Shown one piece after another: positions 774 to 60,195 of a stretch of 64,000 nucleotides of DNA. Made by a program: the position numbers and the translations under genes. The stretch is taken from assembly GCA_964016885.1 (NCBI GenBank), contig OZ024755.1:7316001-7380000 (forward strand), read 5' to 3'. How positions within the stretch are numbered: position 1 is the stretch's first letter; each line of letters starts with the position of its first letter. The notes below the pieces were generated by a model, which was not told the origin of the DNA, searched no databases, and saw nothing but the letters and a program-made list of their open reading frames with translations. This DNA comes from Eledone cirrhosa (Eukaryota).

Positions 774-967
774 ATAGGAAAGGAGTCAGGACCCCGACGG
801 CTGAGCTCCGGCCGTTTCGACAGCTAGATTCGTTCGGATCTAGCTGTCGAAAGGCCGGAGCTTAGCCGTCGGGGTCTTGACTCTTTTCCTATTACCCACT
901 CTACTACCCTAAGTATCGAGTACTCTGGTGCGTTATGGTCCACCTGGTTCCTTACCACACCTTCTTT
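774..967 (+). mobile_element. Hairpin-plus-tail element, family B copy 1 (putative PLE-derived)
   Basis: Near-perfect palindrome 774-892 plus a 75-bp tail (GTATCGAGTACTCTGGTGCGTTATGGTCCACC); (TA)n on both sides; homologous copies elsewhere in the window. Confidence 0.8.
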
Positions 968-1165
968 ATATATATATATATTGAGTACTCACATGAGTAG
1001 TGGTCTCCTCGGGATCAGCATCGCAGACTCTCTCTCTCTCTCTCTCTCTCTCTCTCTCTCTCTCTCTCTCTCTCTCTCTCTCTCTCTCTCTCTCTCTCTC
1101 TCTCTCTCTCTCTCTCTCTCTCTCTCTCTCTCTCTCTCTCTATATATATATATATATATAAATCA

Positions 1166-1287
1166 ACATGGGTTCAGTTTGAAACTGGCTAGACCATTAC
1201 TCAACAAAGTACTTGATACTTGGGGTAGTCGAGTATGATTATATTATAAAGAGCTCAGCCATCGGGTCGTGACGCTTTATAATATTA
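1166..1287 (-). mobile_element. Diverged family B subfamily copy with one arm largely deleted
   Basis: Reverse complement matches the 34050-34205 tail; residual ATATTATAAAG/CTTTATAATAT inverted repeat. Confidence 0.55.
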
Positions 1288-1414
1288 TATATATATATAT
1301 AAAAGAGAAATGTGTTTTACATTAGGAAAGGACATGTATGTTAAGTCAGCGTTTTCGGGGGGAACTGTGGAGAAATGTATGTATGTATGTATGTATGTAT
1401 GTACGTATGTTTCA

Positions 1415-1916
1415 TGGTGAGGAGGGTGACTTTGGACATCCTGCAGGACTAAAAACAAAACCTGTCAAAGGGCAAAGGAGCTCTTAAGAGTCAATGGCCA
1501 TCCAAAATCACCGGGAGAGATGACCACTTAGCCTTTGTCAAGGCAGAATTCTAGGAGAAGGAAAACTCTGATATAACACCTGCAACTCTGATGGTATCCA
1601 ATGATGTTGACTTGTTCTTCTTTTTGGTAAATATCATCTTGGTTAAGAGAGTGGGACTGGCTTTGTGCAGTGCCTTTGCTCACTATAAAAGCTTCACGGC
1701 ACAGGCATTGCTTTATATCTGGATATCTCTCTGCACTTGTCGTCACATGGTACCATGGACACTATGTGTCAATAATTGTCACAAGTGTAGTGTTTGTACC
1801 AGAGTTTTCAAGTCGCTGGCTGGACTAAAAAGTCACACTCGTTCAGCACATCAGTAGGGGTCTCCTACATGGATATAAAGTAGTGGCCGTACTCGAAAAC
1901 GAGTTGGCAGCCACCA
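1415..1916 (+). mobile_element. Family A copy, 5'-truncated
   Basis: Matches about 61184-61691; same 3' end GTTGGCAGCCACCA. Confidence 0.8.
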
Positions 1917-2894
1917 CGTGTGTATGTACACATGCAATCATCTATCTATGTATATATGTATGCATGCCTATATGCATTCATGTATGAATACATGCATCAA
2001 TCTCTCTCTCCCCACACACACACATACCCCCCCCCCCCCACACACATATATATAAGTATATGTGGATTAACCTATTGAGAGAGGTTACAAACATGATGAT
2101 GTTAATGATTTATGAGCAATTTGCACCGTTTCTTAAAACAACAGCATAAATGTATATTTAGTTGATTATACACATATGCACACTATATATATATATATAT
2201 ATATATATATATATATCAATCTATATACATATATATATATACATATATACAAATATATGCATATATATATATACATATATATATATACATATATATATAT
2301 ACATATATATATATATATATATATATATATATATATATATATATATATATATATACACACGCACACACATATATATATATACACATATGTACATGTATAT
2401 ATATATATACACACACACACATATATATATACATATGTACATGTGTATATATATATATATATATATATATATATATATATATATAAATTTATACATATAC
2501 ATAATATATAAATTTATACATATACATAATATATAAATTTATATATATATATAATATATAAATTATATATATATATATATATATATATATATATATATAT
2601 ATATATATATATATATATATATATTTAATGTATGTAGGTTTAATTTGAAACGAAATGAATTACAATCCATTATTGATATTTTAAAAGTTTCTCATTTCAT
2701 ACTAAAGTGATTTAGAAATAACCTCTCTCGCCCGTCGCCATATTGGATTTTATTTCAGACATTCGACTTTATATAAAATTACAGACTCTTGTAATTACAA
2801 CCGTTTAAAAGATGCAATTTTAAAAACTTATTGTTATATTACAGAGGCTTTCTTGGTTCTATTTCTTTCCCAGGATTTTAATATTTGTATAAAA

Positions 2895-3332
2895 ATAATC
2901 ATAATCATTGTCGTTATTGTTAATAACATCATCATCAACATCATCATCACCATTACCAACATCATCAACAACAACAGCCCAAACCATCACTATCATCATC
3001 ACCACCACCACCAACAGCAATCCTATTACCACTACCAACAGCAATTCCCACCACCGCCACCACCACTACCACTATCATCTCAAACAAGAGGCCCACCACC
3101 ACCACCACCACCAACAACAACAACAACGACAGCGACCCCCCCCCCCCCCCAGCACAAACAACACAGCCACCACAATCAACAACAATAACCCCAATACCAC
3201 CACCAACAGCGACAACTCAAACAACAACGTCATCACTACCACCACCCTATCACCAACAACAACATCCTTCACCATCACCACCGCCACCACCGCAAACAAC
3301 AGCTGTCATCCTCCCCACCACCATCATCTACA
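2895..3332. repeat. Cryptic trinucleotide (CAA/CAC/CAT) simple sequence
   Basis: Mixed triplet runs; similar tracts at 1-148, 24530-24780 and 46255-46365. Confidence 0.9.
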
Positions 3333-3560
3333 TAATATTCATTGTTCATATTTTTTGTTATAGTTTTACATATAGTTCCATTGTGTAACTTAAATTACAA
3401 AGACTTATAGCAATATAAACAAAAAACAAGCAAACACACACACACACACACACACACACACACACACACACACACACACACACACACACACACACACACA
3501 CACACACACACACAGATATATATATAATTATTAAGGCTAGATACTACAGCGGTTCCACAC

Positions 3561-58200: not shown

Positions 58201-58376
58201 TCTTGTAGAAAATAACCGATCGATTAACTTTGTGATCAATATCATTTAGTCATTGTGTATTGTTTGTAGGTTCCTTTACGTAGGAGAATAAAATTAGTAT
58301 GTATAGCAAATGGTCCTTAAATCATGTGTAGGTGTTAGGCAGGGACTATATGCGTTTTTCTCGTGTATTCCCTTTA

Positions 58377-58474
58377 CAGGGTGTCCCCAAAAATGTATAC
58401 ACAAAGGCTGTGCATTCAAATAAATATTGCTCATACAGGTAATCAAAGTATGTATAAGTTTTTGGGACACCCAA
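58377..58474. mobile_element. ~100-bp Tc1/mariner-like MITE (family E)
   Basis: TIRs CAGGGTGTCCCCAAAAATGTATAC and GTATAAGTTTTTGGGACACCC, flanked by TA. Confidence 0.75.
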
Positions 58475-58917
58475 TATATATATATATATATATATATATA
58501 TATATAAATAATTGTTATACTTGGGAAGGGTCATATTTTTATAATATTTTCTAAAAGATACAGAAGCGAAAACCAACCCCAACCAAACAGTGAGTGTGTT
58601 TTGTTATTATTTCTGGCAATATTATAACAATATGACTCTCCCCAAGTATAACAATATATATATATATATATATATATATGATGGCTGCCCCCCCGTTATT
58701 GAGTATGGCCATTGCACGATATAACATTATTAACAATTATCAATTAATGCTATCGTGCAATGCCTGTGCGTGAAGATTTTTTTTAATTGAGGAAAGACTG
58801 TGCACTGAGCCAATCCCACTCTCTGAGCGACAGTAGTTATAACCCGAAAAGAAGAAAAAATCAACATTACCAGTAACTACTGAGCCGCAGGTTTTATGTT
58901 GGAGTTATCCCAGTTCC

Positions 58918-58975
58918 CAGAGTTGCCTTCTCCTAGAAAAATGTCATTACAAAGGCTAGGGGTCCTTCACTCCCA
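58918..58975 (-). mobile_element. Diverged family A-like fragment
   Basis: Minus strand GGGAGTGAAGGACCCCTAGCCTTTGTAA...TTCTAGGAGAAGGCAACTCTG resembles 61282-61339. Confidence 0.5.
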
Positions 58976-59989
58976 GTTGTTTAACCGCGCAATCGGAATT
59001 CCAGACTGATTATTTCTATGTCCACGCGCATATACATACATATGTATATATATATATATATATATATATATATATATATATATATATATATATATATATA
59101 TATATATATATACACACAGGCACACAGAGCTATTCAAACAAGGCGCACCATTGATAGTGAATTTAATTTGATGCTACTTCAATATTTCAGGATGAGAGAT
59201 AAATATAGGGGAAGGGTGTAATCTACTTTACTTTATCATCATATCCAACGATACCAATATATCCAACCGTTTATTACCCTGTAATACAACTATATTAAAG
59301 TGTGCTTGTTATTTGGTCGTACAACGATATCATTGTCTCTATCAGTGCATCTTTTAGTAATACAACGATATCATTGTACCCAGCTTTGCTTTATGACAAC
59401 TGTATCAATATATCTCATAGGACTTGTTGAAATAACTATAGCAATTTATTCAACAGAGCTTTGCCTATTGAAACAGCCATATCAGTATATCTGTTTAAAC
59501 AATAATATCAATAGAATATATAATAACCTTTTTATTCAGCTTATACTATGTGATTTATCGAAAGGATTTTTGTAAGTACATGTATCTTCTTACAGTAAAG
59601 AATATGAATTCACTCTTTGTAAGATATGTCGTTAAAGTTTTATATCCATTCTTTTCTCTGTTCAGTAATTATACAAGGATTCGATATTGTAGTCTAGCCA
59701 TCATCCAATAAGTGACTCCTATTTGAGTATTTCGATTAACACAAATGATAGAAACCACCAGATGCCACCTCTGGTTCTACAATACAAAACTATTCATTTT
59801 AAAATATGTGTTTTATATTTGTGTATATATATATATATATGTATATGTATATATATATGTATATGTATATGTATATATATATATATATATATATATATAT
59901 GTATGTATGTATGTATGTATGTATGTATGTATGTATGTATGTATGTATATATATATATATATATATATATATATATATGTATATATGTA

Positions 59990-60163
59990 TATAGAGAAAA
60001 TTGAGGTTGGTAATGGCACATGGAATATATAAGAGACAGAATACTTTTTTGTGAAAAAACATATAATTTTATAAGGTAAGGAAATAATAAAGGGTATAAA
60101 AAATGACCGGTTTCGGTCATATATATATTCCATGTGCCATTACCAACCTCAATTTTCTCTATA
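59990..60163. repeat. Perfect 42-bp inverted repeat with 90-bp spacer
   Basis: Arms 59990-60031 and 60122-60163. The spacer ends in ATGACCGGTTTCGGTCAT (minus strand CC-GAAACCGGTC, hammerhead stem III-like). Confidence 0.85.
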
Positions 60164-60195
60164 ACCTTCGTTTTGTGTAGAAAATTACACTTTTC

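Follow-up and report, generated by a model that had tools for sequence, protein, structure and literature searches.

The stretch analyzed here, called the window throughout, comprises 64,000 nucleotides (nt) of the Eledone cirrhosa genome (GCA_964016885.1, contig OZ024755.1, positions 7,316,001–7,380,000; 30% GC, in an animal assembly of 3.0 Gb) and carries a series of palindromic retroelement insertions in (TA)n microsatellites. A masked palindrome scan and a self-BLAST confirmed five copies of a family that we call B and single copies of families C, D, and E, all of which consist of an inverted arm, an arm, and a tail of about 68–128 nt between TA runs (Table 1). A general search for inverted repeats yielded nothing but TA-rich arrays. 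We refer to the arm that continues into the tail as tailed and to the inverted one as tail-less. The shared architecture of these four families had been recognized in the initial annotation of the window and was confirmed by both methods, the exceptions being the left flank of the B copy at 37266 and the ATCT repeat end of the B copy at 47366.

On the basis of sequence, B, C, and D are 5′-truncated terminal repeats (pLTRs) of Penelope-like elements (PLEs) with Hydra-type open reading frames (ORFs) for a reverse transcriptase (RT) and an endonuclease. Long B copies (L202, L201, L203) reach upstream through the 3′ untranslated region into an RT, a CxCX5C linker, and a YIG endonuclease that carries CxxC and CxH motifs. 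At loci retrieved with the start of the B ORF, the arm and tail directly precede the ORF, which identifies B as a pLTR, and 13 of 20 such loci run from the tail end through a second hairpin into the ORF region. The sequence past the C tail, also a second hairpin, occurs at 260 places in the genome; the C tail continues into pieces of an RT ORF at all 15 loci read, and four long copies have the endonuclease upstream of the arm. Family D sits 3′ of a B/C-like endonuclease and RT in L426. A single ORF region with an RT followed by a C-terminal GIY-YIG-type endonuclease was thus found for all three families, as were the insertion hallmarks of endonuclease-bearing (EN+) PLEs, namely, partial-tandem pLTRs, an inverted 5′-truncated copy, and a one-sided tail. 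These ORFs bear out the Penelope-type origin proposed in the initial annotation, which had suggested searching longer copies for them; every PLE ORF copy of B, C, or D that was read is frameshifted. The N-terminal motifs are RWR and DKT in B and RW and DKT in C, and no RWK-like/DKT motif was seen in D, for which the N-terminal part was not recovered. When compared by eye with the alignment in PMC8557442, B and D showed the CxCX5C linker, no CCHH motif, and CxxC/CxH around the conserved E and N, and C showed the linker; by this comparison, the motifs match the Hydra clade as defined in that paper. Pfam returned no significant match for four B ORF fragments, and a protein library search with the ORF gave 6,232 unnamed matches at E ≤0.001, which shows only that the domain is widespread. 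A search for read-through B copies with a TTAV pattern yielded 20 loci with no common continuation; the true continuation, which starts with TTATTT, came to light at loci retrieved through the ORF. Family E is an ORF-less tandem unit of 566 bp (L178, L179; longest ATG ORF, 45 amino acids) that inserts in the same way as B, C, and D, and it alone of the four looks non-autonomous. The earlier description of the modules as short non-autonomous insertions therefore suits E and does not suit B, C, and D, the truncated pLTRs of coding elements.

These families are abundant in the genome, as the initial annotation had expected of the tails. The B tailed end followed by TATA gave 33,405 exact pattern matches, and a narrower pattern for the tail-less end followed by TATATA gave 15,040, with no match for either reversed control; the other families are also repeated, and 390 kb of arbitrarily placed genome stretches held 25 arm ends of B, 5 of C, 13 of D, and 1 of E. 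A TA flank, scored as TATATA or ATATAT no more than 14 nt outside the end, accompanied 290 of the 327 tailed and 261 of the 293 tail-less ends. The corresponding background was 11% for random stretches of the genome and 22% for the window. Of the loci sampled, 60 had been chosen with TA in the search pattern and 20 against it. TA targeting, another of the early proposals, is thereby supported. Among the 20 loci chosen for non-TA flanks, four have exact target duplications of 13–15 bp (L061, L068, L071, L074) and two have shorter ones. Raw reads of further samples that carry the same species label joined the tail-less B end to (TA)n (2,796–3,305 reads per run) and contained strand-switch joints for B and D, and no read or contig covered a complete window locus. 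The palindromes are real at the family level, which is not shown for each individual window locus. A second organism (run X5), queried with window positions 34660–34960 and 29900–30700, holds B, D, and E sequence, and three of its contigs join the tail-less B end to TA. At D ends, tailed and tail-less alike, a (CT)n run often precedes the (TA)n (L410, L412, L415, L416, L423, L426, L427), which could reflect slippage at the start of copying or a preference for CT/TA boundaries. D sequence also occurs in a 1,342-bp tandem array composed of the endonuclease end, arm, tail, and an unrelated piece (L159/L160; G000:C10:17.958–17.960 Mb) and in a minisatellite of about 6.7 kb with a 30-bp period built from the tail end (G000:C4:80498906–80505660). 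The C read-through motif recurs at a 204-bp spacing on both strands at G000:C2:216011835–216012394, possibly as a short tandem C derivative.

To describe the pairing of the arms, we mapped 665 arm ends in the window and in loci L001–L312, with natural copies as yardsticks, and obtained 215 distinct head-to-head pairs. A tailed arm was paired with a tail-less arm in 193, two arms of the same type in 11, and an arm with a partial tail was involved in 11. The B copy at 26598 was classed by the script as tail-less/tail-less owing to its tail deletion, and the same-type pairs are therefore overcounted, if anything. The tail-less arm was longer by more than 10 nt in 58 of the 193 pairs and the tailed arm in 15; a recount anchored on the tail gave 46 and 13, respectively, of 151 pairs and left another 100 tailed arms without a neighboring partner. 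When only pairs with at least 97% identical arms of at least 25 nt each were considered, the tail-less arm was longer in 13 and the tailed arm in 7 of 76. Tail-less arms of 3.0, 2.3, and 1.7 kb in L202, L203, and L206 face tailed arms of 1.0, 0.2, and 0.2 kb (an excess of 1.5–2.1 kb), L204 is a long insertion with the reverse asymmetry, and in some pairs the tailed arm measures 0–4 nt, that is, the inversion has no overlap. The two arms of an insertion nonetheless resemble each other: 45 of the 48 B pairs that could be read agree at all seven variant positions (mean 11.3 and maximum 22 after shuffling), and arm lengths are correlated within each family. At the 193 junctions, the arms overlapped by at least 1 nt in 87, abutted bluntly in 16, and were separated by extra bases in 90; several of the inserts copy nearby element sequence, such as a 111-nt tail piece in L185, and some junctions fall on natural short palindromes. 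The 5′ ends of both arms pile up at about 50–62 nt (B) and 160–163 nt (C) upstream of the arm/tail boundary, possibly at an RT stop on an RNA structure or at the end of a short source copy.

The end points of the arms are accompanied by a bulged hairpin, the fold of which is predicted from complementarity (descriptor: CTC-stem-loop-bulge-GAGYRCT). A first copy lies 9–15 nt past the tail-less end point in 154 of 194 B tails, 37 of 40 C tails, and 34 of 45 D tails, and a second follows the tailed end point after 7 nt in B (at the 13 of 20 loci mentioned above) and after about 9 nt in C. In B and C, therefore, a copy of the hairpin stands 7–15 nt 3′ of both end points. The inner stems vary among the families with pairing preserved, and the motif occurs 8 times in the window (0–2 in shuffles) and 32 times in the random stretches (0–7 in shuffles). 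Among the published consensi displayed in PMC8557442, inspection by eye showed it in coral and sea-cucumber elements, at the 3′ end in Hydra-2_Amil and Hydra-2_Ajap and in two copies at the 5′ end in Hydra-1_Ajap; no exact match was seen in the displayed ends of Hydra-1_Amil, Hydra-1_Obim, and Hydra-1_Crog, and the main text of that paper contains neither “hairpin” nor “stem-loop” and so does not mention a paired hairpin. At window positions 7172–7195 and at several random loci, CTC...GAGYRCT marks additional families, several of them with a hammerhead-like GAAA upstream.

We consider it probable that the palindromes arise from a staggered cut in (TA)n whose 3′ ends both prime reverse transcription, at two fixed sites of a single RNA, the RNA coming from PLE pLTRs in the case of B, C, and D and from the ORF-less unit in the case of E. 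A dimeric RT–endonuclease would bind the two hairpins, one subunit per hairpin, and cut (TA)n with a stagger of 13–15 nt; each target end (..TA-3′) would then pair with UA just upstream of one hairpin, and both would be extended on the same RNA. Reverse transcription primed upstream would yield the tail-less cDNA, and that primed downstream would copy the tail and then trail over the same RNA by strand displacement, after which end joining, with microhomology or templated inserts, would link the two truncated cDNAs head to head. The tail would then equal the distance between the two start sites. The pair types, shared variants, target duplications, and junction joins fit two primers from a staggered cut on one template followed by end joining, and the link to the ORFs, the two fixed outer ends at TA, the pairing of a tailed with a tail-less arm in each insertion, the fact that either can be longer, and the hairpins also support this reading, which we regard as a likely proposal drawn from sequence data. 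The more specific idea that, in Hydra-type PLEs, two conserved hairpins dock the subunits of an RT–endonuclease dimer and thereby let a single RNA be primed at set distances by the two ends of a double-strand cut in (TA)n has in our estimation an even chance of being correct. If so, one geometry would account for the PLE tail, the inverted repeat, the target duplication, and the mobilization of ORF-less units such as E, and would constitute a mode of retrotransposition distinct from the target-primed reverse transcription of LINE-type elements.

The initial annotation had attributed the palindromes to fold-back of a self-priming cDNA. In the form considered here, a single cDNA would fold and be copied back as far as a fixed stop, and any asymmetry would arise from later deletions at the palindrome center. 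The shared variants and correlated lengths of the arms would be expected on this basis, some junctions do lie on natural short palindromes or show overlap (the 87 of 193 above), and self-priming has been proposed for PLE palindromes in the relevant section of PMC3846280. Fold-back requires, however, that the tail-less arm be a subset of the tailed one, and the longer tail-less arms, present also among near-identical arms, in excess by up to 2.1 kb, and in the window copies of C and D, therefore weigh against it. Inversions without overlap likewise do not fit, and fold-back does not explain why the tail-less arm should stop 9–15 nt short of a hairpin that is found past the tailed end as well; we accordingly consider it unlikely. 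Priming of the two ends on two RNA molecules, or on the two pLTRs of one tandem transcript, with each dimer subunit holding its own template, would explain the overlap of the arms without strand displacement, and partial tandems are common, as would suit it; the 11 same-type pairs among 215 and a few direct joins between families (L032, L048) also point in this direction. Independent templates nevertheless predict frequent same-type pairs and mixed subfamily variants, both of which are rare, and we give this possibility little weight, although its tandem-transcript version would be compatible with these data. In L032, L048, L051, and L119, an inverted copy of the family of the hammerhead module at 8961 stands head to head with a tailed B or C arm, and these could be mixed-template or stacked insertions. 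It is very improbable that the palindromes are assembly chimeras, or fold-backs of DNA transposons (miniature inverted-repeat transposable elements) or Helitrons in TA repeats. Palindromes next to microsatellites are hard to assemble, and the lack of a read or contig over a complete window locus would agree with an artifact, but the raw reads contain both the (TA)n junctions and the strand-switch joints; the families continue into RT–endonuclease ORFs and have target duplications, and their ends are asymmetric, unlike terminal inverted repeats.

Several observations weigh against priming of both ends on one RNA or narrow what can be said for it. Restricting the comparison to pairs with two arms of 25 nt or more reduced the surplus of longer tail-less arms to 26 versus 14 (p = 0.08), with 10 versus 11 in B alone and 16 versus 3 in C, D, and E combined; moreover, several long tailed arms had no partner in the count, having been used as reference copies. 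It is therefore firm only that either arm can be longer, and the direction of the bias is suggestive. Later deletion at the palindrome center can also produce asymmetry, and conversion mediated by hairpins, or a single source locus that dominates, could explain the shared arm variants. The strict hairpin descriptor matched none of 43 E tails, in which a looser GCTC...GAGC version was seen by eye at both end points, and a second hairpin and read-through were sought repeatedly in D and not found (in L426, the first hairpin precedes the ORF, and the sequence past it diverges). Moreover, in the in vitro reactions reported in the text of Frangieh et al. (PMC11167929), start sites did not differ between strands, whereas the two ends here nearly always use different sites.

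Predicted hammerhead ribozymes or their 3′ halves in the arms, also noted initially, were found in three of the four families. In the window, canonical cores lie at 5064 (+), at 9010 (−), and in each arm of the C copy, at 15551 (+) and 15434 (−), where the type I hammerhead is complete; the cores of D and of the modules at 29052 and 34353 were recognized by eye. The C hammerhead has a CUGAUGA...GAAA core with stems, and that of D has a CUGAAGA...GAAA core with a stem I of 5 bp in longer copies and a weak stem II. Window B arms contain the 3′ half, and the palindromic stem III attributed to them is in fact a hairpin of 4–5 bp with a 9-nt loop. Only long B copies have the full form, with a four-pair stem I, a UUGANAA or CUGANAA core, a long stem II, GAAA, stem III, and GUC. 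A hand count of the first 100 of 4,239 matches gave 72 UUGANAA (U3–A8), 28 CUGANAA (C3–A8), and no CUGANGA (C3–G8) cores; the B core is thus non-canonical, unlike those of C and D, although its stems I–III can form, and B is accordingly a Hydra-like variant. A canonical CUGANGA 5′ half sought upstream of B gave 48 matches attributable to chance or junctions. The U3–A8 variant is reported from Schistosoma PLEs in the part of PMC4209133 that deals with them. Family E has no canonical core and no Rfam match at the gathering score; a UUGAAAA...GAAA-like pair with a stem II is present, with an unconvincing stem I. An Rfam scan of the whole window (E ≤5) gave 681 rows, the best 150 of which were all microRNA models on microsatellites, and neither confirms nor excludes hammerheads. 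Of the four hammerhead modules initially described as non-palindromic, those at 5058, 29052, and 34353 belong to families with 3, 13, and 1 opposite-strand pairs at other loci, and no such pair occurred among 13 hits for the module at 8961. A peak of B 5′ ends at the cleavage site was sought and was not clear. Because most arms extend upstream of the predicted cleavage site, the template RNA is likely uncleaved.

The architecture itself, with an inverted copy, a one-sided tail, and (TA)n targeting, has already been published for PLEs. In the sections of Craig et al. (2021; PMC8557442) on EN+ PLEs, which include the Hydra clade and Hydra-1_Obim, an inverted 5′-truncated copy and a one-sided tail of 30–40 bp are described as traits of PLEs in general, and the target of Hydra elements is given as (TA)n. 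The present elements share the target, inverted copy, and one-sided tail, and B shares the C-terminal GIY-YIG-type endonuclease, RW(R/K)-like and DKT motifs, CxCX5C linker, and CxxC/CxH around E and N. They differ in their tails of 68–128 nt and, in B, in the non-canonical hammerhead core, and Hydra-1_Obim is listed there without a pLTR; by sequence, they would be a longer-tailed form of Hydra-type PLE, in the case of B with a variant hammerhead. Frangieh et al. (2024; PMC11167929) describe, in the text available, a PLE protein (PAc Poseidon) that cuts and extends both strands and starts at two tail-bounding sites, with a predicted dimer. The two start sites, extension of both strands, dimer, and uncleaved hammerhead RNA template resemble our proposal; PAc belongs to a different clade, its two sites are not linked to the inverted copy in that text, and it showed no strand difference, whereas here one site is nearly always used per end. 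In Adineta vaga Penelope, as presented in the corresponding section of Arkhipova et al. (2013; PMC3846280), head-to-head inverted pLTRs, a junction palindrome, an optional tail, and target duplications occur as they do here; the palindromes were read there as self-priming, possibly on an antisense template, and the arm lengths reported above weigh against a simple fold-back. Minimal type I hammerheads in PLE pLTRs, with opposite-strand pairs 100–700 bp apart, are described in the PLE section of Cervera and de la Peña (2014; PMC4209133). Li et al. (2026; 10.64898/2026.07.22.740005) define non-LTR retrozymes, in the definition given in their text, as ORF-less tandem units with a type I hammerhead per unit; E shares the ORF-less 566-bp tandem unit and, lacking a canonical hammerhead, falls outside that definition.

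In LINE-1 twin priming, which Ostertag and Kazazian reportedly put forward in 2001, the same RNA is also primed by the second target end, and the inverted segment is joined by microhomology. The second LINE-1 site is variable and far upstream, which leaves no arm overlap, whereas a fixed site 68–128 nt upstream, as here, produces a palindrome. Neither the two-ended model nor the paired hairpin was found in the literature searched; subscription papers, Repbase entries, and bioRxiv supplements, which lay outside the search, may describe the hairpin. A query combining Penelope-like elements and twin priming returned no PLE mechanism paper, judged by titles and the beginnings of abstracts, and since 2023, the only work retrieved on target-primed PLE insertion with both strands and a dimer was PMC11167929; nothing was retrieved on palindromic Penelope copies in an octopus genome. 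The formation of the PLE inverted repeat and tail is named as unresolved in the passages on it in Craig et al. (2021) and Frangieh et al. (2024). Tens of thousands of short and recent insertions in this genome have junctions by which the models can be told apart, and the small cis-signal offers a direct mutational test. If the model is correct, PLE insertion would be a two-ended, double-strand-break reaction in which the spacing of the hairpins sets the tail length, and any RNA with the two hairpins could be written into TA repeats. These elements place dense DNA palindromes in microsatellites across a 3-Gb animal genome.

Table 1. Insertions and hammerhead modules in the window
Feature	Position	Strand	Remarks
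Family B insertion	776–966	+	Inverted tail-less arm 777–831, tailed arm 840–889, tail 890–966
First CTC...GAGYRCT bulged hairpin (predicted) in B tail	899–924	+	9 nt past tail-less end point
Single hammerhead arm	5030–5160	+	Core 5064; family makes head-to-head pairs at other loci
Hammerhead module between TA runs	8907–9129	−	Core 9010; no opposite-strand pair in 13 hits
Family C insertion	15241–15648	sense on −	Palindrome arms 153 bp; tail-less 157 nt, tailed 149 nt; hairpin 15326
Family B insertion	26598–26776	+	Tail deletion of about 12 nt removes hairpin 5′ side
Hammerhead module	28992–29212	+	Core near 29057; family makes head-to-head pairs at other loci
Family D insertion	30040–30238	+	Palindrome arms 60 bp; tail-less 73 nt, tailed 63 nt; CUGAAGA...GAAA core; hairpin 30179
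Family E insertion	30254–30562	+	Perfect palindrome, 90-bp arms, 128-nt tail; piece of 566-bp tandem unit
B-related family, newly found here	34051–34215	+	Short inverted arm, tailed arm, hairpin 34150
Hammerhead-like module between TA runs	34300–34535	−	Core near 34464, long stem II region; by eye
Family B insertion	34704–34905	+	Arms identical; hammerhead 3′ half (GAAA, stem III, GUC site) in each arm; hairpin 34835
Family B insertion, older	37266–37464	+	Left flank without (TA)n; hairpin 37395
Family B insertion	47366–47568	−	Tail terminates in ATCT repeat; hairpin 47436
Further head-to-head insertion, newly found here	59990–60195	+	Inverted tail-less arm about 120 nt, tailed arm 35 nt, short tail without CTC hairpin; by eye

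Other repeats were also seen in the window. An old imperfect palindrome of 293 bp (79%) at 19070–19362 is not TA-flanked and has no further copy in the sampled loci. Two dispersed families of the size of short interspersed elements, both unrelated to the palindromic modules, are represented at 6116–6365, 11978–12231, and 44078–44328 and at 16575–16763, the latter with about 10 related copies.

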